Source: Rhodothermales bacterium
GTDB lineage: Bacteria > Bacteroidota > Rhodothermia > Rhodothermales > VXPQ01
Assembly (NCBI GenBank): GCA_040904565.1
Contig: JBBDTI010000076.1
Location: 7,028 to 20,570 of the forward strand
Direction of reading: 5' to 3'
DNA length: 13,543 bases
Below, one piece after another: positions 11-13,543 of this stretch; position 1 is the stretch's first letter; each line of letters begins with the position of its first letter. The translations under genes and the position numbers were made by a program. The notes beneath the pieces were generated by a model. That model had not been told where the DNA came from and did no database searches. It saw nothing but the letters and a program-made list of their open reading frames with translations.

Positions 11-80
11 GTCGATGCCTTTCGTCGATGCCTTTCGTCGATGCCTTTCGTCGATGCCTTTCGTCGATTCCTTCCGTCGA
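11..80. repeat. 13-bp tandem repeat GTCGATGCCTTTC: 4 perfect copies, 1 degenerate copy and a partial copy
   Basis: Perfect units at 11-23, 24-36, 37-49 and 50-62; GTCGATTCCTTCC at 63-75; GTCGA at 76-80. Confidence 0.97.
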
Positions 81-3110: not shown

Positions 3111-3207
3111 GTCTGGACGGTTGACTGTGGACGGTTGACAGGTGCGTGCAGCCGGCAACGGCGGACGGCTCGGAAAACCGTCGACCGTCGACCGTCAACC
3201 GATTCCG
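3111..3207. repeat. Heptamer-based inverted-repeat spacer element (rpsE-rpmD)
   Basis: Left arm has GGACGGTTGAC twice (3115-3125, 3129-3139). Right arm is ACCGTCG-ACCGTCG-ACCGTCA-ACCG (3177-3201). Inner stem AGCCG/CGGCT. Confidence 0.85.
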
Positions 3208-3732
3208 TTATCCGTTGAACACTTTCTTCAGTGGGATGCCCCTTCGCTTGGCAACCTCTATGGGGTCTTCGAGCTGCTCCAGGGCCTCGATCGTCGCGGC
3301 CACCTGGTTATGCGGGTTGCTCGAACCGAGCGACTTGGACAGAATGTCGCTGATGCCGGCGCATTCCACCACGGCGCGCACGCCGCCCCCCGCGATCACG
3401 CCCGTACCCGGTGCGGCCGGTTTCAGCAGCACCTTGCCGGCGTCCTGCCGGCCTACGACGGGATGCGGGATCGAGCCTCCTTTCAGCGGGACCCGTATCA
3501 GGTTCTTCTTGGCGTCGTCCGTGCCCTTCGAGATCGCGTCCGCGACCTCGTTCGCCTTGCCGAGCCCGGCGCCAACGGTTCCGTTGCCGTCACCTACGAC
3601 GACGACCGCGTTGAATGAAAAACGACGGCCGCCCTTGACGACCTTCGATACGCGCGAAACGGATACGAGCCGCTCCTGCCAGTCCTGGCCCTGCGCCGCC
3701 TGTCGCCGACGATTTCTACTTCCTCTCGCCAT
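3208..3732 (-). CDS. rpsE: 30S ribosomal protein S5
   Basis: [30 protein letters not shown] and [10 protein letters not shown] motifs. Confidence 0.99.
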
Positions 3733-3779
3733 TATCCAATTGCCAGATTAATGCGTGTCATTCCGCGTCGCGTCATTGT

Positions 3780-4142
3780 TCAGCACCGGAGGCCGCCCTT
3801 TCGCGCACCTTCCGCCAACGCCTGTACGCGGCCGTGATACCGATAGCCGTTTCTGTCGAAGACGGCACGTTCGATCCCCTTCTCCTTAGCGCGCTCGGCC
3901 AGTGTTTGTCCGACTGCCTTGCCCAGTTCCACCGGCGTCTCGCCCGTTATCCCGTCATCGAGACTGGAAGCGGCGGCAAGCGTAACGCCTTCGCGATCGT
4001 CGATCAGTTGCGCGTAGATATGTTTGTTTGAGCGAAAGACGGACAGTCGGGGCCTCGACGGCGTTCCGTCGATTTTTCCACGAATGCCGCGTTTTACGCG
4101 CCGTCTCCGCTCTTGCTTATGATGCTTTGCCATGGTTTCCAT
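3780..4142 (-). CDS. rplR: 50S ribosomal protein L18 (start may be 4133)
   Basis: [20 protein letters not shown] and [13 protein letters not shown] motifs. Confidence 0.97.
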
Positions 4143-4191
4143 CCGATAAATCAGTATCCAAACCCGTTCCGGCCCGCACGATGCGGTCCAC

Positions 4192-4746
4192 CTACCGGGC
4201 CGCCGTCTTGCCGGCCTTGCGGCGCACGTATTCGTCGACGTACCGCACCCCTTTGCCCTTATAGGGCTCCGGCGGCCGCAGTCCGCGGATCTTCGCCGCC
4301 ACCTGTCCGACCATCTGCTTGTCCGTCCCTTCGATCAGGATGATCGTGTTCTTGCCTCGCTTCGCGTCCACCTCAATGCTTACACCGTTCGGCGGCACGA
4401 AGTAGATCGGGTGAGAGAAGCCGAGTGCCAGCTCGAGTACGCCGTTGTTGACGGTCGCGCGGTAGCCGACGCCGATAACTTCCAGTTCCTTCTTGTAGCC
4501 CTCCGTGACACCGATCACGGCATTATCGATCAGCGAGCGATAGAGGCCGTGAAGCGATTTGTGCCGCTTCTGATCCGTCGCACGATTAACGAGGACCTGG
4601 CCGTCTTTCGACTCGACCGTGATACCGGGGTCAATTTGCACCGACAACTCTCCCTTGGGACCTTTGACGGTCACCAGGTTATTCGCAGCGACGTCTATCG
4701 ATACCTTGTCGCCGAGCTCAATCGGCTGGTTGCCAATACGAGACAT
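4192..4746 (-). CDS. rplF: 50S ribosomal protein L6
   Basis: [17 protein letters not shown] and [13 protein letters not shown] motifs. Confidence 0.99.
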
Positions 4747-4804
4747 AATTTCTTCCTGTTGGTCTTGACGTTCTTACGACTACCCGGGACGGGCTACACC
4801 GTAT

Positions 4805-5206
4805 CTAGTACACGTGGGCAAGCACCTCGCCGCCTACGTGCACTTTACGCGCCTCTTTATCCGTCATCATGCCCCTAGAGGTGGACAGGATGGCGACGCC
4901 GAGGCCGTTCTTTACACGTGGCAGGTTATCCGCCCCTACGTACTTACGAAGTCCCGGTGACGAGACGCGCTTCAGCATCCGTATAGCAGGGATGCCATCC
5001 ACATCGTATTTCAGATAGACGCGAATCAGGCCCTGCTTGCCGTCGTCGATGTTCAGGTAGTTACGGATATACCCCTTCTCGAGCAGAATTTGCGTGAGTG
5101 CACGTTTCTGCTTGGAGGCGGGAACGTCCACGTATTTGTGGTTGGCCTGCTGGCCGTTCCGTATACGCGTCAAGTAATCCGAAACCGGATCCGTTATTCC
5201 ACTCAT
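4805..5206 (-). CDS. rpsH: 30S ribosomal protein S8
   Basis: DPVSDYLTRIRN, RVSSPGLRKY, ILSTSRG and GGEVL motifs. Confidence 0.99.
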   Translation of the reverse strand: MSGITDPVSDYLTRIRNGQQANHKYVDVPASKQKRALTQILLEKGYIRNYLNIDDGKQGLIRVYLKYDVDGIPAIRMLKRVSSPGLRKYVGADNLPRVKNGLGVAILSTSRGMMTDKEARKVHVGGEVLAHVY

Positions 5207-5307
5207 ATTACCTTCATTGCTGGTTGCACGTCGCCGGCCGAAACTCGGAGCCCGTGCCGCATGGTGCGGCGCCTGCCCCGGAGCACGTCAACCGGTAACT
5301 GATTGAA
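5207..5307. repeat. Degenerate inverted-repeat spacer (rpsN-rpsH)
   Basis: CTGGTTGCACGT (5220-5231) pairs with ACGTCAACCGG (5285-5295). Inner hairpin GTGCCGCA-TGG-TGCGGCGC. Confidence 0.55.
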
Positions 5308-5577
5308 TTACCAGGATGCTTTGCGAACGCCCGGAATCTTACCCTCCAGGGCCATCTCCCGAAACACGATGCGCGAGACGCCGAAATCGCGCAGGAAGCC
5401 CCGCGTACGCCCGGTCAGCGGGCAGCGGTTGTTCAACCGAACGGGACTCGAATCGCGCGGCAGCTTCTGGAGGCCGACCCAGTCGCCCTCCTCTTTCAGG
5501 CGGCGGCGCCTTTCGGCATATTGCTTTACTAGGCGCTGACGCTTCTTCTCGCGTGCGATCCAACTTTTCTTAGCCAT
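5308..5577 (-). CDS. rpsN: 30S ribosomal protein S14, 89-aa zinc-independent type
   Basis: MAKKS...[19 protein letters not shown]...[11 protein letters not shown]; only one Cys. Confidence 0.98.
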
Positions 5578-5629
5578 AGGGACGAAACACTCTTACTGTT
5601 CGGTACGATGCATGCTGTAGCTCTTCGGA

Positions 5630-6244
5630 TCAGGTCTCTTCGGCCACCGCTTCAGGTTCTTCGGCGGCGTCGGACCCTTCCGTTTTCGGTTCTTCGCGAC
5701 GGACGAACGGCATGCCAAGCGCCTTAAGCAGCGCGTAGGCCTCTTCGTCCGTCTCGGCCGTCGTCACGAACGTCACGTCCATCCCGTCGATCCGCGGCAC
5801 CTTGTCCATGTCGATTTCCGGAAAGATGATCTGTTCCTGCACGCCCAGCGTGTAGTTGCCGCGTCCGTCGAAGCTGCGGTCAGGCACGCCTCGAAAGTCG
5901 CGCACGCGGGGCAGCGCCAGTGTAATGAGGCGGTCGAGGAATTCGTACATGCGGGCGTCGCGAAGCGTCACGCGGCAACCGATCGGCATCCCCTCGCGCA
6001 CCTTGAAGTTCGATATACTCTTGCGCGCTCGTGAAATAGCCGGCTGCTGACCGGTGATCCGGCGAAGCTCGTCTACCGCATTGTCGAGCGCCTTCTGGTT
6101 CTCGGCCGCCTCGCCAACGCCCTTGTTGACGACGATCTTGACCAGGCGCGGCACTTCCATCACGTTATCGTGACCGAAGCGCTTGGAAAGCTCCGGCACG
6201 ATTTCTTCGTGGTACCGCTCTTTAAGTCTTGGGGTGTAAGCCAT
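5630..6244 (-). CDS. rplE: 50S ribosomal protein L5
   Basis: [34 protein letters not shown] and IIFPEI motifs; acidic C-terminal tail. Confidence 0.99.
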
Positions 6245-6326
6245 AATCTTCAGTTGCCGGTTGCCGGTTAACGGTCGTTCGAGCGAGAGGTTATTTCCCT
6301 CGCGATCTATAAACCGTCACCCGTAT
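6245..6326. repeat. Heptamer-based inverted-repeat spacer element (rplX-rplE)
   Basis: Left arm CAGTTGC-CGGTTGC-CGGTTAA-CGGTCGT (6251-6278). Right arm ACCGTCA-CCCGTAT (6313-6326). Inner stem GCGAGAGG/CCCTCGC. Confidence 0.7.
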
Positions 6327-6680
6327 TTATGTAAGCTCTTCGCCGGTAGTTTTTGCATAACGTACCCAATGGCCGCGGCCGGTTTCGGGGTCTTCGATCC
6401 GCTTGCGGCCGACGCGTGTCGGCTCGCCGTTGGTATCGAGAGGCTGCACGTTCGACACGTGAATGGGGACCTCTTTCTCGATGCGTCCTCCCTGCGGATT
6501 GGCCGCGCTCGGCTTCTCGTGATGAAAACGCAGATTCACGCCCTCGACGATCACCCGATTCTTCTCCGGGAAGACGACGAGGATCTTGCCCTCGTATCCC
6601 CGGTAGTTCCCGGCGGTCACGCGGACGGTGTCGCCCTTCTTCACGTGAAGCTTCTTCTGTTTGTTGTGCGTTCTGGGCAT
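6327..6680 (-). CDS. rplX: 50S ribosomal protein L24
   Basis: KOW motif [12 protein letters not shown], plus VIVEGVN and PIHVSNV. Start moved to the ATG at 6680 (MPRTHNKQ). Confidence 0.96.
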
Positions 6681-6789
6681 GTCTGGATTTCGGTTGACGG
6701 TGGTCGGTGGCCGGTGGACTGCTCTGGGCGCAAGATGTCGCGTTACCGATCGCGAACCGTCGCCCCTCAACAGCCAACTGTCGACCGTT
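6681..6789. repeat. Heptamer-based inverted-repeat spacer element (rplN-rplX)
   Basis: Left arm CGGTTGA-CGGTGGT-CGGTGGC-CGGTGGA (6691-6718). Right arm ACCGTCG-CCCCTCA-ACAGCCA-ACTGTCG-ACCGTT (6756-6789). Inner stem TCGCG/CGCGA. Confidence 0.8.
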
Positions 6790-7158
6790 CTAAAGTACTT
6801 CCGGTGCTAGCGATACAATGCGCATGAACTCTCTTTCGCGCAGCTCGCGGGCTACGGGCCCGAAGATGCGGGTACCGCGCGGCTCGTCCTGAGGCGTGAG
6901 CAGCACGGCCGCGTTCTCATCAAATCGAATATAGGAGCCGTCTTTCCGCCGGAATTCCTTCTTCGTCCGAACGACCACGGCCGGCGAAATTTCGCCTTTC
7001 TTGACCGCCCCGCCCGGGATGGCGGACTTCACCGACACGATGATCTTGTCGCCGATGCGCGCGTAACGCCGACCGCTGCCGCCCAGCACGCGAATGCAGA
7101 GCACCTCTTTGGCGCCGCTGTTGTCGGCCACGTTAAGTCTTGACTCCTGCTGAATCAT
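6790..7158 (-). CDS. rplN: 50S ribosomal protein L14
   Basis: [17 protein letters not shown]...[13 protein letters not shown]...SLAPEVL. Confidence 0.99.
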
Positions 7159-7273
7159 GGCTGTATCTATGTTTGGACGCCTTCAACGACCGGCGCCGGT
7201 GTGTTCTCCAAATATCGTTACGATCACGCGGAGGTCGAATTGACCTCCTCTCGTTCCGTACCATCGGAACGCA

Positions 7274-7549
7274 CTACTTGGCCCGTTCGATCACTTCCGT
7301 CAGACGCCAGCGCTTCTTCTTGCTGAACGGACGCGTCTCTCTGATGCGGACGGTGTCACCCTCGTTCGCATCATTATTTTCGTCGTGTGCCATCAGCTTC
7401 GTCGTCTTCTTGACGAACTTGCCGTAGATCGGATGTTTGATCTGACGCTGCACGGCGACCGAGATGCTCTTCTCCATCTTGTCGCTGACGACCACGCCGA
7501 TACGCTCTTTGCGCATCGTCTGTCGTGCCTGCTGTTCCGTAGCTTCCAT
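7274..7549 (-). CDS. rpsQ: 30S ribosomal protein S17
   Basis: [22 protein letters not shown] and [11 protein letters not shown] motifs. Confidence 0.99.
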
Positions 7550-7635
7550 CGGTCTCTAATTCCTTATGACTCTTTTGACCCGAGCGCGGCAGCGAAGCAC
7601 AGGCTTCGCCTCACGAGCGGGGACTGCCGTGCGCA

Positions 7636-7842
7636 TTACGCTTCGGCGGTTTCTCGTTCTTTCTCGTTTTGTATCGTCTTCAAGCGAGCCACCAGACGAC
7701 GCTTCTGGCGAAGCAGCATCGGGTTCTCGATGTGCGCAATGGCGTGCTGGAACTCCAGCTGACGAAGCTGATCTTCCTCTTCGTCGATGCGAGAGCGAAT
7801 CTCGTCGACGCCCAGTTCGCGAATTTCTTTAGCCTTCAACAT
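7636..7842 (-). CDS. rpmC: 50S ribosomal protein L29
   Basis: 68 aa, KAKEIREL...LENP-like IENP...VARLKT; canonical position between rplP and rpsQ. Confidence 0.96.
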   Translation of the reverse strand: MLKAKEIRELGVDEIRSRIDEEEDQLRQLEFQHAIAHIENPMLLRQKRRLVARLKTIQNEKERETAEA

Positions 7843-7871
7843 GGTTTCGGTCGGCTTCGGTGAACGTCGTG

Positions 7872-8312
7872 CTATCGGATGGTCGTCTCGGCGGCACGGA
7901 AGTCCGGTCGCACGACGAATTTCGTCTTAATGGGCAGCTTATGCTGTGCAAGGCGCAGGGCTTCGCGAGCCAGTTCCTCCGAAATACCGCCTCCGATCTC
8001 GAAGAGGACGCGGCCCGGCTTCACCGGCGCCACCCAGAATTCCGGGGAGCCCTTACCCTTACCCATGCGGGTCTCGGCCGGCTTTTTCGTAATCGGCTTG
8101 TCGGGGAAGATGCGAATCCACACCTTTCCGACACGCTTCATGCGGCGCGTCATCGCCACACGGGCCGCTTCGATCTGGCGGCTCGTGATACGACCCGGTT
8201 CCAGCGCTTTAATTCCGAAGTCTCCGAAGCTGATGCGCGTACCCCGGGTCGCATTGCCTTTAAGGCGACCCTTTTGATACTTGCGATGCTTCGTACGCTT
8301 GGGCATTAACAT
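7872..8312 (-). CDS. rplP: 50S ribosomal protein L16
   Basis: [26 protein letters not shown] and RMGKGKG motifs; GAGGAG ribosome-binding site upstream. Confidence 0.99.
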
Positions 8313-8378
8313 GGGCGTACTCCTCGATACTTATCGATAATCTCTCTGTATTCGTCTCATTGTTTCCTGCCGGGCCGG

Positions 8379-9110
8379 TCAGGAGCGCTTGCTTCGCCCG
8401 CGCTTGCTCCGGCGCTTGCGGGCCGGCGGCTGCGACTGCTGCATCTGCTGGCGCTGGGCCTGCACGTTCGGACTGAGATCGGGCTGGCCGAGGATCTCGC
8501 CCCGGTAAATCCACACCTTCACTCCGATCGTTCCATAGACCGTGTAGGAAGTCGCCCGCGAATAATCGATGTCGGCACGGATCGTATGCAGCGGCACGCG
8601 GCCTTCGAGATACTGCTCCGTACGCCCCATCTCGGCGCCGCCCAATCGGCCGGCGACGCGTATGCGGATTCCTTCGGCACCCATGCGCATGGCGGCCGTG
8701 ATGGCCTGCTTCATGGCACGACGGAACGATACGCGGCCCTCCAGCTGCTGGGCGATGTTCTGAGCTACCAGGCTGGCATCCAGCTCCGGGCGCTTGATCT
8801 CGCTGATGTTGATCTGGATGTCCTTGTTCGTCAGCTTCTTGAGCTCCTCGCGGAGCTTCTCCACCTCGCTGCCGCCGCGACCGATCACGACGCCCGGACG
8901 ACTGGTGTGGAGCGTAAGAATGACGCGTTTCGGCGTACGCTCGATGACGCACCGGCTCAAGCCGGCACGGCGCAGGCGCGCCGCCAGATAGCGACGTATT
9001 TCCTCGTCCTCAAGGAGCTTCTCCGGCAGATCTTTCTCGGCATACCAGTTGGAGTCCCACCCCTTGATGATGCCCAGACGAAAGCCGACTGGATGCGTTT
9101 TCTGGCCCAA
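8379..9110 (-). CDS. rpsC: 30S ribosomal protein S3 (TTG start)
   Basis: [15 protein letters not shown]-domain [17 protein letters not shown] and [12 protein letters not shown] motifs. Confidence 0.99.
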
Positions 9111-9165
9111 TGTCTTGTCCTTCCCTTATTGAAATCGTAAGAGTGTCTGTATCTCCTCGTGCGAA

Positions 9166-9531
9166 TCAGGCTTCCACCCGTTCCACCTCGTCGACCGTCG
9201 CGACGACCACCGTAAGGTGGCACGTTCGCTTCTGGATCGGCTTGGCCCGCCCTCGGGCGGCCGGTCGGAACCGCTTAAAGCGCGGCCCGTCGTCGGCCCG
9301 AATCTCCTTCACGACCAGCCCGCCCTCGTCGAAACGCTCGTCCGGATTTTTATCCATCAGATTGTAGACGGCCGACTGAATCGTCAGCTCTACCGGACGC
9401 GTCGCGTTATGCGGCTGGTAATGCAAGATGTTCAACGCTTCCGCCACGGACTTGCCGCGGACGAGGTTGATAACCGGACGCATCTTGCGAGGCGACGTTC
9501 TAATATGCTTGCGAATAGCGCGTGCCTTCAT
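9166..9531 (-). CDS. rplV: 50S ribosomal protein L22
   Basis: SPRKMR, GPRFKRFRPAARGRA and KRTCHLTV motifs. Confidence 0.98.
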   Translation of the reverse strand: MKARAIRKHIRTSPRKMRPVINLVRGKSVAEALNILHYQPHNATRPVELTIQSAVYNLMDKNPDERFDEGGLVVKEIRADDGPRFKRFRPAARGRAKPIQKRTCHLTVVVATVDEVERVEA

Positions 9532-9616
9532 ATCCTTCTAAGGCCGTCGCGATACATCGCGCAGATCTGCACGATTTCTCTTCCGGCCACGTTTATTGCT
9601 TCTCAGTAATCTTCGG

Positions 9617-9904
9617 TTATCGTTTCATTCGCTTGTCGGCGCTTCCTCGACCGGAGTGCCCCCGGAAGGTCCGCGACGGCGCAAACTCACCCAGCTTGTG
9701 GCCGACCATGTTCTCGGTGATGTACACCGGGATAAATTGCTTCCCGTTGTGCACGGCAAAGGTATGGCCGACAAAATCGGGCGTAATCATAGAGGCCCGA
9801 CTCCAGGTCTTGACGACCTTCTTCGAGTTACTCTTGTTCAGTGCGTCGACCTTGCGCTGCAGTTTGTAATAGACGTAAGGTCCTTTGCGTAACGACCGTG
9901 CCAT
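9617..9904 (-). CDS. rpsS: 30S ribosomal protein S19
   Basis: [22 protein letters not shown] and [11 protein letters not shown] motifs. Confidence 0.99.
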
Positions 9905-9940
9905 GCTTACTCGGTTTAGCTCTGTGTCAAGAACCGCTGC

Positions 9941-10771
9941 CTACTTTTTCTTCTTGCGGCGGCGGATGATGTACTTGTTGGACTGTTTTTTCTTCTTTCG
10001 CGTCTTGTATCCCTTCGCGGAGACGCCGGTCGGTGACCGCGGATGCCCGCCGGACGCCTTGCCCTCGCCGCCACCCATGGGATGGTCGACCGGATTCATG
10101 GCCACGCCGCGCGTCTTGGGACGTACGCCGAGCCAGCGGTTTCGGCCGGCTTTGCCGAGATCGACATTCATGTGATCCGGATTGCTCGTCGTGCCGATCG
10201 TCGCCATACACGCGTTCTCGATCAGGCGCGTCTCGCCCGAGGGTAATTTCAATGTGGCGTACTTGCCTTCCCGAGCCGTCAGCTGCGCGTACGTACCGGC
10301 CGAGCGCGCGATCTGCGCGCCCTTCCCGGGCCGCATCTCGATCGCATGGACGAACGAACCGATCGGAATCTTGCCCAGCGGCAGGCAGTTGCCCGGATCG
10401 GGCGGCGCATCCGGACCGTTTTCGATCGTCGAACCTACCTTGACCTCGTCCGGCGCGATGATATAGCGCTTCTCCCCGTCCGCGTAGACGAGCAGCGCGA
10501 TACGCGCGGATCGATTCGGATCGTACTCGATGGTAGCAACACGTGCCGGCACGCCAATCTTCCGGCGCTTGAAATCGATAATGCGATAGCGACGCTTGTG
10601 GCCGCCGCCCTGATGGCGAGTGGTGATTCGACCGTTATTATTGCGGCCGCCCTTCTTCGTCAACGGCGCCAGGAGACTCTTCTCCGGCTTCGCCACCGTC
10701 ACGTCCTCGAACGAGTCGACGGTGTACTGCCTCCGGGCGTTTGACGTCGGCTTTACTTTTTTTATAGGCAT
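9941..10771 (-). CDS. rplB: 50S ribosomal protein L2
   Basis: [23 protein letters not shown] and [17 protein letters not shown] motifs. Confidence 0.99.
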
Positions 10772-10855
10772 CGTTCTATCTCTCTGGCGTCGTCGCTAAG
10801 TCCGGTCGTCCCTGATTCCAATGATCGAAGAGCGTGCTACGCGCTTCGATTCTCG

Positions 10856-11155
10856 TTATACCTGTTCGAAGAAGTCGATCGGCTCGGAGTCTTCCGTCAG
10901 CGTCACGATGGCGCGCTTGTGGTAGGCCGTCCGGCCCGACACCGTTCCGCGCCGGGTCTGCTGACTGCGACGCTTCCCCCGTACGATGAGGGTGCGCACG
11001 CTCTTAATCCGTGCGGTCGGATACCGATCCTTGACGGCCTTCTTGATTTCCACCTTATTGGCATCCATCCGGACCTCGAAGGTGTAGTGTCCTTCCTCCA
11101 TCAGCCTCGTCAACTTCTCGGTAACGAGCGGCTGGATCAGTACGTTGTTGCTCAT
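10856..11155 (-). CDS. rplW: 50S ribosomal protein L23
   Basis: LIQPLVTEK, ANKVEIKKAV and KRAIVTL motifs. Start at the ATG at 11155, with AAGGAG 5 nt upstream. Confidence 0.96.
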   Translation of the reverse strand: MSNNVLIQPLVTEKLTRLMEEGHYTFEVRMDANKVEIKKAVKDRYPTARIKSVRTLIVRGKRRSQQTRRGTVSGRTAYHKRAIVTLTEDSEPIDFFEQV

Positions 11156-11192
11156 TGGGTCTCCTTCGTCGATCTCAATTCGTGATCCGGGT

Positions 11193-11840
11193 TCAAGCCT
11201 CGGCCGTCTCCTTCGTTCCAAGCAGCTCTGCAAGCGTCGCGACGGCCTTCTCTTCCATAACCACAACGTCCGCCTTCAGAATGTCGAGCGTCGAGACGCG
11301 CTGCGCCTCCTTAACGTCCACCTTCTTTAGGTTTCGGCTCGACTGATACAGGTCCGGTCGATATTCGCTCGTCAGGATGAGAACCTTTTCCTCGGTAACC
11401 CCCAGCCCCGCCACCAGCGCGACGAGCTCCTTCGTGCTAACCCGCTCGAAGTCCAGCTCGTCCACCACCCGAAACGCCTCCTTCTGCGCCTTATAGGCGA
11501 AGGCGGAGCGACGTGCCAGCCGGCGCGTCTTCTTATTCACCTTGAATCCGTAGTCGCGCGGACGCGGACCAAAGGTGGTACCGCCGCTGCGACGGATCGG
11601 CGACTTGGCGTCACCCGCCCGAGACATGCCCGTACCTTTCTGGCGGTACAGCTTGCGCCGGCTGCCGCGCACTTCGTTGCGTTCCTTCGCTTTGTGGGTC
11701 CCCTGACGGGCGTTCGCCTGAATGCGCCGGACGTCCAGCCAAATGACATGGTCATTGGGCTCGACCTCAAACACCGAGGCGTCGAGCGTCACCTTGCGCT
11801 TCGTCGCGCTTCCGTCAGAACCGAAGACCTTGACTTCCAT
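11193..11840 (-). CDS. rplD: 50S ribosomal protein L4
   Basis: [14 protein letters not shown] and [12 protein letters not shown] motifs. Start moved to the ATG at 11840 (MEVKVFG). Confidence 0.97.
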
Positions 11841-11922
11841 GATGTACCTAAACGTTTCTTTCGTGCGCATCCCGGCAAAACGGGAGCGTGCAGTGTGTAC
11901 GGTGGCCGTGCGGCGCGAAGAA

Positions 11923-12558
11923 CTATTTCTTCTTGTGGATGGTGACGAAACCGCCTTTCGGACCGGGTATCGCACCCTTGACCAATACGGCGTTCTGGTC
12001 GTCGAGCACGCGGACGATCGCAAGATTGCGGATCGTAGTCCGCGCGTTCCCCATGCGGCCGCCCATCCGCATGCCCGGGAAGACCCGCGACGGATCGGAG
12101 GAGGCACCGATGGAGCCCGGTGCCCGCTCCCGATTGTGCTGACCGTGCGTGCGGCCGCCCACGCCGCTGAAGTTGTGGCGGCGAACGACGCCCTGGAATC
12201 CTTTCCCCTTCGACGTGCCGACGACGTGGACGATGTCGCCTTCTTCGAAGACGTCTACCGCCCTGAGTTCGTCTCCGAGCGTGACCTCGTCGACGTCGAA
12301 ATCGCGCCGGAATTCCACGATTTTCTTTTTCGGCGTCGTGCCCGCCCGGTCGAAATGACCGTGCGCGGCGCTCGTCACGTGCTTCTCCTTCTTCTCACCG
12401 GTGGCGAGCTGAACGGCGTCGTAGCCGTCAGCGCCATCGGCCGACTTAACCTGGGTCACCACGTTCGGCGTGACTTCGACGACGGTACAGGGGATGTTAT
12501 TCCCCGCGTCGTCGAAGACGCTCGTCATTCCGACCTTCTTTCCTATCAATCCACTCAT
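11923..12558 (-). CDS. rplC: 50S ribosomal protein L3
   Basis: [30 protein letters not shown] and VKGAIPG motifs. Confidence 0.99.
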
Positions 12559-12625
12559 TGGAATCGTCTTAAGACTGCTTGATGGAGGCGTCCGGCGGCG
12601 CGCCTCCGGGCATACGGTGCGTCAG

Positions 12626-13081
12626 CTACTTTTCGATGGTAAGGGTAACCGTCCCCTGGTAGATGTCCGTGCCGAACAGACCGTTCACGAAGGCCGCGTT
12701 GGCCGACAGATCCACGCTCGTATCGGTTTGGAACTCATAGCTGAACGGAATATTCTGACCGCTCGGCGGGGAAAGCACGAGCGACTTCGCTCCTTCGTCC
12801 ACCGTGTAGGTACCCGGGATCGTCGTCGGATCGTTGCCGCTTGCGGGCTTATAATCCACGAAAATGGAAAACTCACCGCTCGCGGTCAGCGTCGCCGTCA
12901 ATCCGTTGGCGATCTGACCGAAGAACGGCATGCGGTCTCCCTCTCCATCCTCGAACGCCGTCATGGTCCACGTGCCGACAAACAATTCAGCGTCGGACGT
13001 TTCGTCGTCGGTACCGGAGTCGCACCCGATCGCCACGAGGGCTACCGCCAGTGCGAGACAACATGCAGAAAGCTTACGCAT
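12626..13081 (-). CDS. Hypothetical lipoprotein, probably a lipocalin-like beta-barrel
   Basis: 151 aa. Signal peptide II (MRK, hydrophobic core, lipobox AIG-C20), then an acidic patch DSGTDDE. Lipocalin-like LFVGTW and GTYTV motifs; beta-strand-rich. AGAGGAG ribosome-binding site 5 nt before the ATG. Fills the rpsJ-rplC gap on the same strand. Confidence 0.85.
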   Translation of the reverse strand: MRKLSACCLALAVALVAIGCDSGTDDETSDAELFVGTWTMTAFEDGEGDRMPFFGQIANGLTATLTASGEFSIFVDYKPASGNDPTTIPGTYTVDEGAKSLVLSPPSGQNIPFSYEFQTDTSVDLSANAAFVNGLFGTDIYQGTVTLTIEK

Positions 13082-13086
13082 TTTCG

Positions 13087-13093
13087 CTCCTCT
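13087..13093 (-). promoter_or_regulatory. Shine-Dalgarno site (AGAGGAG) of the inserted lipoprotein gene
   Basis: Minus strand reads TGA-CCCAACCTA-AGAGGAG-CGAAA-ATG. Confidence 0.75.
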
Positions 13094-13102
13094 TAGGTTG
13101 GG

Positions 13103-13414
13103 TCAAACCTTAATTTCTACGTCCACGCCGCTGGGCAGCTCGAGCTTCATGAGCGCGTCGACCGTCTTGCTGCTCGTCGACAAAATGTCGATCAGGCGCT
13201 TGTGACTCCGCGTCTCAAACTGCTCCCGGCTTTTCTTGTCGACGTGCGGGCCTCGCAGCACCGTATAGATCGACTTTTTCGTCGGGAGCGGGATAGGCCC
13301 GCTCACTACGGCACCGGTCGACTTCACGGTCCGGAGAATCTTCTCCGCACTTTTGTCGATCAGCCGATGGTCGTATGACTTCAGCTTGATTCGTATTTTT
13401 TGACTTACGGCCAT
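13103..13414 (-). CDS. rpsJ: 30S ribosomal protein S10
   Basis: [18 protein letters not shown] and [12 protein letters not shown] motifs. Confidence 0.99.
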
Positions 13415-13510
13415 AACGTCGCTTCGCTCCTTCAGTTGGACGGTTGAGGGTGGCGGCTTCCCGGCAGCAAGGCGTTTCCCCTTGCGGACCGTCAGCCGAC
13501 AACCCTATGA
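13415..13510. repeat. Heptamer-based inverted-repeat spacer element (tuf-rpsJ)
   Basis: Left arm CAGTTGGA-CGGTTGA-GGGTGGC (13433-13454). Right arm ACCGTCA-GCCGACA-ACCC (13488-13505). Perfect inner stem GCAAGG (13467-13472) / CCTTGC (13480-13485). Confidence 0.7.
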
Positions 13511-13543
13511 TCAATCTAGAATCTTCGTGACCACGCCGGCGCC
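13511..13543 (-). CDS. tuf: Elongation factor Tu, C-terminal end (partial)
   Basis: Minus strand translates as GAGVVTKILD-stop, the typical EF-Tu C-terminus; canonical position upstream of rpsJ. Confidence 0.9.
   Translation of the reverse strand, partial: GAGVVTKILD

Follow-up and report, generated by a model that had tools for sequence, protein, structure and literature searches.

Ribosomal protein operons are among the most compact and conserved parts of bacterial DNA, yet in one Rhodothermales bacterium (Bacteroidota) several spacers of such an operon are filled by hairpins of 80–110 nucleotides (nt) that are built from repeats. The question that this locus raises is what these elements are and how essential operons come to tolerate them. 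The stretch analyzed here, which we call the window, comprises 13,543 nt of GenBank assembly GCA_040904565.1 (contig JBBDTI010000076.1, positions 7,028 to 20,570 of the forward strand) and holds a minus-strand S10/spc operon, in which every large open reading frame (ORF) lies on the minus strand and the spacers are unusually long for this operon, with 14 of the 22 measured exceeding 50 nt. An original prediction, made from the letters of the window, had singled out five of these spacers as sharing inverted arrays of a degenerate heptamer. We followed the elements through the window, the rest of the genome and the operons of relatives, and we consider it roughly an even chance (about 50%) that they are ORF-less, intervening sequence (IVS)-like inverted tandem-heptamer hairpins, tolerated because they are folded, and perhaps cleaved, out of the transcript.

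Architecture of the spacer elements

Four of the spacers (tuf-rpsJ, rplN-rplX, rplX-rplE and rpsE-rpmD) follow a single layout on the mRNA, where 1–5 nt separate the stop codon from an array of two to four degenerate CGGTYGA units; next come a core that forms a small hairpin itself, three or four TCRACCG units and, after a further 4–27 nt, the ATG of the next gene. The clearest case is rpsE-rpmD, with eight motif matches and a predicted hairpin that begins 1 nt after the stop codon and ends 4 nt before the start codon. The fifth spacer, rpsN-rpsH, had been put forward as a weaker member and is one, having about one heptamer per arm and one motif match, and failing the array criterion used throughout (at least 11 matches in 14 at period 7, an arbitrary threshold). 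The coordinates proposed for the five spacers match ORF boundaries exactly, and clear element ends are not definable within the repeat arms. The elements read as follows in mRNA sense.

13415..13510, minus strand: tuf-rpsJ spacer element, with a degenerate 5′ arm GGGTTGT CGGCTGA CGG at ~13489-13505, a small core hairpin at ~13458-13488, a 3′ arm ..CCACCC TCAACCG TCCAACTGAAG at ~13430-13457, and an unpaired leader at 13415-13429 that contains AAGGAG
6681..6789, minus strand: rplN-rplX spacer element, with a 5′ arm CGGTCGA CAGTTGG CTGTTGA at ~6767-6787, a core hairpin at ~6722-6766, a four-unit 3′ arm TCCACCG GCCACCG ACCACCG TCAACCG at ~6690-6721, and a leader at 6681-6689
6245..6326, minus strand: rplX-rplE spacer element, with a 5′ arm CGGGTGA CGGTTTA at ~6310-6323, a core hairpin at ~6277-6309, a 3′ arm GACCGT TAACCGG CAACCGG CAACTGA at ~6249-6276, and a leader at 6245-6248
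5207..5307, minus strand: rpsN-rpsH spacer, the weak case, a GC-rich hairpin with about one heptamer per side (CCGGTTGACG ... CGTGCAACCAG)
3111..3207, minus strand: rpsE-rpmD spacer element, with a 5′ arm CGGTTGA CGGTCGA CGGTCGA CGGTTTT at ~3173-3203, a core at ~3143-3172, a 3′ arm TCAACCG TCCACAG TCAACCG TCC at ~3115-3142, and a leader at 3111-3114

Heptamer enrichment and other loci in the genome

Enrichment of the heptamers over background, which had been set as a test beforehand, is found both in the window and genome-wide. With up to three mismatches, the two-unit pattern TCRACCGTCRACCG has 29 matches in the window against 9.4 expected, a count reached in 0 of 200 shuffles, and 22 of the 29 fall inside the five spacers (8, 1, 4, 5 and 4 matches), or 3.6% of the window. 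Within every spacer, matches that read CGGTYGA on the mRNA lie on the stop side and the TCRACCG matches on the start side, and Tandem Repeats Finder calls period-7 arrays in three of them (3177-3201, 6253-6269 and 6690-6717), so that the shared architecture proposed for four spacers stands. The word CTTCAGTTG, said to be identical in two spacers, occurs exactly twice in the window, at 6248 and 13430, against 0.07 expected. Across the genome, 55 segments of 21 nt lie within three mismatches of (TCAACCG)3, compared with 0 in a third-order Markov genome.

The assembly is a 4.02-Mb draft with gaps at repeats (61.5% GC, 95 contigs, 95% complete), from which rRNA genes are absent, none being found by a 16S model search. 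Its motif family occupies about 12 spacers, all of them between co-directional genes or tRNAs.

Ribosomal protein cluster: the five window spacers, and rpoA-rplQ further down the same cluster
Outside this cluster: tuf-tRNA-Trp, tRNA-Tyr-tRNA-Gly, atpD-atpC, cysD-cysN and tatA-amidase
GFO/IDH/MocA oxidoreductase-MFS transporter spacer: eight perfect units before the start codon

By simple arithmetic rather than a formal test, one ribosomal protein cluster, with roughly 27 of the 1,726 co-directional spacers, contains half of the loci, and genome-wide 13 of the 15 arrays with at most four mismatches are intergenic. Among the 12 elements, 32 words of at least 9 nt are shared between elements, and 30 of them belong to the arms, to the tuf 3′ flank or to CAACTGAAG beside the start codon; the cores are therefore unrelated and only the arms are akin, as had been claimed. 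The first 22 nt after the tuf stop codon are identical in the tuf-rpsJ spacer of the window and the tuf-tRNA-Trp spacer on contig C53. The end of C53 and window positions 13489-13543 carry the same tuf 3′ end plus these 22 nt, then diverge to tRNA-Trp (C53) or rpsJ (window). This arrangement suggests either a second tuf copy or a collapsed repeat, with the hairpin at each locus keeping the shared 5′ arm.

Period-7 arrays in related genomes

The whole operon was taken from 20 other Rhodothermales genomes, giving 21 operons with this one; genes outside the window are approximate ORF calls, start codons in the relatives are likewise approximate, and related genomes are non-independent samples. 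Over 277 spacers of at least 40 nt, autocorrelation reaches z-scores of 19.9, 12.1 and 7.2 at lags 7, 14 and 21, respectively, with no other lag above 7.4. Period-7 arrays occur in 37 of 276 spacers and in 11 of the 21 genomes. Heptamer words outside the best array comprise 298 reverse-complement matches versus 7 reversed, 48 complemented and 55 direct, and at least three reverse-complement matches are found in 30 of the 37 array spacers, so an inverted partner accompanies nearly every array.

What is shared between genomes is the period, since the unit itself varies: CAACCGN here and in G003, GAGGTCA/GACTTCC in G001, GCAACYT in G004, CCAGAAC and CGAGGAT in G006, CCGCAAT in G025, and GCTGAYR, AATCCAA and CATTACN in G019, with at least seven different units across the spacers of G028. 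The same junctions are reused repeatedly across relatives, especially rplN-rplX and rpsN-rpsH. Empty orthologous sites, which the original prediction had proposed looking for, exist within the same family, where near-empty junctions measure 7 nt (G004) and 4 nt (G001) at rplX-rplE, and 12 nt (G004) and 6 nt (G024) at rpsE-rpmD. Arrays are absent, and spacers are short, in genus g8 and three further genera; the rplN-rplX spacer measures 4–5 nt in the 12 g8 genomes. A sample of 27 loci from across the phylum contained 85 long spacers; arrays were called in two, of which one had an inverted partner.

A metagenome scan for close relatives of the L24 protein gave 11 loci, the nearest at 89% identity. 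In this nearest relative the ribosomal proteins are 84–98% identical and the rplN-rplX spacer holds an unrelated 236-nt hairpin. Contigs from four DNA runs, which are fragmented and patchy and come from related strains, have small insertions or deletions in two spacers and no 7-nt steps. Across the loci compared, the elements turn over far more quickly than the proteins change, and orthologous sites differ in copy number. In G006 (L036), a scaffold gap lies inside a (GAGATAG)n array at rplW-rplB with the same flank duplicated on both sides, probably a repeat-caused assembly artefact.

Folding and pairing

Folding against shuffled controls, a check put forward with the original prediction, gave a clear result for the array spacers of Rhodothermales and a modest one for the window's single elements, whose values are given below. 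With shuffles that preserve the composition of each half, array spacers have a mean fold z of -3.1, with 78% below -2, compared with -0.2 and 10% for other long spacers. For the main predicted hairpin, the median distance is 3 nt from the stop codon to the stem (interquartile range 1–5) and 14 nt from the stem to the start codon (interquartile range 6–18); the stem covers 81% of the spacer, and the 3′ arms and leaders are rich in A and C but poor in G. This genome and G003 each have an rplN-rplX spacer of 109 nt, and the two are homologous and alignable. Among 25 predicted pairs, three have compensatory changes, five have wobble-compatible changes on one side and none is broken. With only two sequences, this retention is suggestive at best, and the double changes could alternatively be conversions towards the repeat unit.

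Association with S23p genes

The suggestion that the spacers are empty remnants of a cargo cassette gains support from relatives that carry genes of the S23p family (PF05635, a four-helix bundle) between inverted heptamer arms. Such genes are present in 13 of 31 Rhodothermales genomes and in 0 of 12 in genus g8, and inverted arms surround them in G001, G024 and G025. A called heptamer array stands beside the ORF in 5 of the 14 PF05635 loci examined. Arrays that lie on both sides and pair are found at L108 (z -6.2) and L110 (z -8.4), with 0 of 200 shuffles as low in each case; the flank-duplex test is noisy at PF05635 loci and clear for these two only, and the downstream flank at L104 is complementary by eye only. 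In G001, the arms around the PF05635 gene share their unit with the ORF-less hairpins in its ribosomal protein spacers, plus a common 13-mer. In G025, an arm-flanked PF05635 gene occupies cysD-cysN, the junction that holds an ORF-less hairpin in the genome of the window. No ORF fits into the 82–109-nt window spacers, and this genome yielded no convincing cargo-bearing cassette when inverted partners were sought up to 1.5 kb from every intergenic heptamer array. In their layout, the elements are built like the arms of S23p-carrying IVSs.

Relation to known repeat systems

Tandem heptamers are known from the short tandemly repeated repetitive sequences of heterocystous cyanobacteria, which are intergenic and in some cases lie inside operons. 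Among openly readable papers, we found no publication on hairpins of the present kind in Rhodothermales. The closest described counterpart is in Xanthomonas, where GGGAATC heptamers form about 190 sites per genome, including 70–75 convergent pairs that are potential stem-loops; about 90% of the sites are intergenic, they lie near the end of the upstream ORF and mostly between co-directional ORFs, and close species differ in the length and sequence of the sites (Rehm et al., 2015, PMC4692102). The elements of the window likewise consist of 7-nt tandem units in convergent arrays, intergenic, near the upstream ORF end and between co-directional ORFs. Thus, paired inverted heptamer repeats are already published, and the window elements belong to that partly described kind. 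The Xanthomonas unit, however, is G-rich and was studied as a quadruplex former at about 190 sites, whereas CGGTYGA has no G runs, fails the G-rich quadruplex criterion and occurs at about 12 loci in translation-apparatus operons. A further difference is that the unit changes from genome to genome in Rhodothermales.

A second counterpart is the 23S rRNA IVS of Coxiella burnetii, described as carrying an S23p ORF, a terminal stem of 28 bp and tandem GACAGAT heptamers whose number varies between strains, and shown experimentally to be excised by RNase III with a cut at the first repeat (Warrier et al., 2016, PMC4990558). The likeness lies in the long terminal stem of complementary ends, the tandem heptamers, which in Coxiella sit in the 5′ part of the IVS, and the site inside a highly expressed transcript. 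The IVS, however, lies in 23S rRNA helices, carries an ORF and is excised by RNase III, whereas the elements described here lie between protein or tRNA genes and are ORF-less.

Two further systems share some traits. Direct repeats of TAACTGA stand just upstream of start codons in marine Beggiatoaceae, some Cyanobacteria and Bacteroidetes, including ribosomal protein operons without canonical ribosome-binding sites, and the sets as reported hold one indirect repeat among 170 (MacGregor, 2015, PMC4679880). Here too, heptamer runs lie within a few bases of start codons, and the start-proximal unit degenerates to CAACTGA, but TAACTGA is a direct repeat of one conserved heptamer, while the Rhodothermales arrays usually come in inverted pairs and lack a conserved heptamer. 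The P6b stem-loop of the Nostoc tRNA-Leu(UAA) intron is reported to contain 7-nt repeat motifs on both strands, in two alternative classes, with variable length and whole regions replaced between lineages (PMC4476775). It is thus also a hairpin of 7-nt repeats, but in a cyanobacterial group I intron rather than an operon spacer.

Several established classes were considered and set aside. No intrinsic terminator or attenuator, with a GC-rich stem and a T run, is present in the five spacers, and 0 of the 16 terminator-like sites of a scan of the window fall within them. Sigma-70-like promoters were also not found in the spacers by a scan that excludes Bacteroidota-type promoters. Rfam covariance models, including those of ribosomal protein leaders and other curated families, gave no relevant match, the sole match in the window at E up to 1 being a chance snoRNA. 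A possible pairing of CCAACCG with part of the conserved 16S 3′ end, to which it is complementary, was dropped, as these junctions hold unrelated heptamers in other genomes.

Interpretation and rival explanations

The elements are placed a few bases after a stop codon or tRNA, between co-directional genes and mostly in highly expressed operons, and an A/C-rich leader of some 14 nt separates them from the next start codon. In the mechanism that we favor, arrays would grow and shrink by 7-nt slippage, and the two arms would be kept alike by hairpin-templated correction or by selection for pairing. Essential operons would tolerate the element because the transcript folds it into a long stem, which would hold the stop and start regions close together and shield the C-rich spacer. 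The stem would probably be cut by RNase III, as in the Coxiella IVS; by this analogy such processing is plausible, and the rnc gene is present in the genome.

Several observations weigh against this account. The fold z-scores of the five window elements are modest, being -0.5, -0.6, -2.6, -1.55 and -1.1 with dinucleotide shuffles (rplX-rplE is the -2.6) and -1.2, -2.8 and -3.1 with half-preserving shuffles (rpsE-rpmD is the -3.1), so the case for them rests on repeat architecture and not on free energy. In a comparison meant to reveal G-U pairs, and with them selection at the RNA level, the sense strand folds better in 16 of the 37 array spacers and the antisense strand in 21; with no strand asymmetry of this kind, the folds do not favor RNA over DNA as the site of pairing. 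Pairing is also not obligatory, as the locus on contig C54 has eight units against about 1.5 in the partner arm, and in the nearest metagenomic relative the rplX-rplE spacer carries 12 direct CCAACCGN units but lacks a 5′ arm. The link to S23p is loose: no PF05635 gene above cut-off was found in this genome, the best match (24.5 bits) lying elsewhere with no arrays beside it, and among the 21 genomes, which include non-independent kin, eight have both arrays and PF05635 genes, three arrays only, five PF05635 only and five neither. Lastly, locus-specific direct tandem repeats of 10–17 nt abound in the intergenic DNA of this genome, in convergent, divergent and co-directional spacers alike; arrays with periods not a multiple of three number 92 in intergenic DNA, which is 13% of the genome, versus 14 in coding DNA. 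Part of the picture is therefore explained by a mutational tendency of the genome as a whole.

This last point leads to the alternative that the elements are a neutral by-product of 7-nt slippage and quasi-palindrome correction in length-tolerant spacers, with no function and no mobility as a unit. Such a process would fit the extremely fast turnover between close relatives, the empty junctions and the lack of a sense-strand bias, and heptamers are reported to be the commonest long simple repeats in prokaryotes, for which polymerase slippage has been proposed (Mrazek, 2007, as summarised in PMC4679880 and PMC4692102). It accounts less readily for one heptamer family occupying about 12 spacers, six of them in the cluster with roughly 27 of 1,726 co-directional spacers, for the tight placement of the hairpin start after the stop codon, for the same arms flanking a gene in relatives, and for inverted partners being the rule for 7-mers (the only repeat length examined in this respect). 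We regard an entirely neutral origin as a serious minority possibility. The original prediction inferred that the stem brings stop and start codons together, and the predicted stems do span most of the spacer, as far as prediction goes. As a function in translational coupling, the stem would hide the region before the start codon until a terminating ribosome melts its base, or a ribosome would be handed across the base, matching ribosomal protein yields in a lineage with little Shine-Dalgarno use. In favor of this, a terminating ribosome could reach the stem base, which lies 1–5 nt past the stop codon, the 3′ arms and leaders contain much A and C but little G, and the TAACTGA runs upstream of start codons, also in ribosomal protein operons, have been proposed as translational signals (PMC4679880). 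But the family is also found at tRNA-Tyr-tRNA-Gly and tuf-tRNA-Trp, with nothing translated downstream, and these two elements flanking tRNA genes exclude a purely translational role; moreover, a median of 14 nt before the start codon is already unpaired and many relatives manage with spacers of 4–12 nt, so that we consider coupling unlikely as the explanation.

Mobilization in trans by a transposase, as for a classical miniature inverted-repeat transposable element (MITE) or a repetitive extragenic palindromic (REP) element or REP doublet forming a hairpin (REPIN), was proposed at the outset and would fit the inverted arms, the extragenic sites inside operons and the several copies per genome, and one relative, G027 (L044, L022), has a true REP-like palindrome GCCTCTGGCGCCAGAGGC in at least five ribosomal protein spacers. 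In the strict sense this reading finds no support. The REP, bacterial interspersed mosaic element (BIME) and REPIN classes need one conserved short palindrome in high copy together with a REP-associated tyrosine transposase (RAYT), while the present family has only about 12 loci, unrelated cores and variable arms, and PF01797 gave 0 matches to a Y1/RAYT transposase in the 95% complete genome. Nor do the copies have the shared internal sequence or fixed terminal inverted repeats of a MITE, their arms being tandem repeats of variable number. Insertion of a single palindromic unit also cannot account for G001, where the heptamer occurs in both arm orders, with the purine-rich arm first at rplW-rplB and last at rpsN-rpsH. 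We therefore give mobilization of this type very little weight. Even harder to credit is the view that a single RNA- or DNA-binding factor (S1, a cold-shock protein or CsrA, for example) uses the arrays as binding sites: regularly spaced identical units of one family within a genome would suit it, and the idea has been proposed for TAACTGA repeats (PMC4679880), but related genomes have different heptamers, as do the spacers within a single genome (at least seven units in G028), and what is common is period and self-complementarity, not sequence.

A broader form of the favored IVS-like reading would unite heptamer-armed hairpins, with or without an S23p gene, as one cross-phylum class of self-insulating insertion. 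Members would enter highly transcribed operons (rRNA, tRNA, ribosomal protein, atp) right after a stop codon or mature RNA end, be harmless since the stem is folded or cut out by RNase III, and diversify by 7-nt slippage; the window copies would then be the decayed or minimal form, and S23p would be a maintenance or mobility factor. We offer this generalization tentatively and think it rather doubtful as a whole.

Gene order and further observations

The genes of the window, those without Pfam confirmation being named by operon order and size, are in mRNA sense:

Minus strand: tuf (end), rpsJ, a 151-aa lipocalin-like ORF, rplC, rplD, rplW, rplB, rpsS, rplV, rpsC, rplP, rpmC, rpsQ
Minus strand, continued: rplN, rplX, rplE, rpsN, rpsH, rplF, rplR, rpsE, rpmD, rplO, secY, map

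The 151-aa ORF between rpsJ and rplC (12626-13081, minus strand) has a weak lipocalin-like match to PF13648 (21.1 bits, below cut-off), and a homologue stands at the same position in 15 of the 18 Rhodothermales operons that cover the rpsJ-rplC junction. G027 has an insertion of two lipoprotein-like ORFs (135 aa and 162 aa) at the rpmD-rplO junction.

The spacer after map holds a perfect 13-mer array at window positions 11-80, with 5.4 copies of GTCGATGCCTTTC on the plus strand. It continues in L070 (6852-6927, C76), thus flanking both sides of a scaffold gap (N run) just outside the window, and the next spacer, rpmJ-rpsM, has a direct repeat of about 16 nt.

Two conserved leaders were found in relatives and are absent from the window. 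A hairpin GGTAGTTGGTGAGG ... GGCTCACCAAGCC upstream of rpsQ in L037, L041, L044 and L055-L058 may be an undescribed S17 leader; rpsQ of L041 has an apparent Ala/Glu/Pro-rich N-terminal extension. Upstream of rpsH in L007, L010, L022, L023, L028 and L055-L058, the motif pair TAGCTAAGCGC ... GAACTGGCTGAAG, with variants, may be a candidate S8-binding leader.

Significance

Spacers of this kind have practical consequences. Simple ORF rules over- or under-extended the start calls of rplX, rpmD and rplQ, so that such spacers mislead start-codon calling, and repeat spacers also break assemblies, as at the gap beside the window at the 13-mer array and the gap in the G006 heptamer array. For the biology of this Bacteroidota order, the hairpins in ribosomal protein spacers are replaced faster than the proteins themselves change. 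They tie together three observations that were published separately, namely heptamer simple repeats, the inverted pairs of Xanthomonas and the heptamer stems of S23p-carrying IVSs. If the stems are indeed processed by RNase III, these elements would represent a general way to insert sequence harmlessly into essential transcripts, and would provide a handle on the role of the widespread S23p family.

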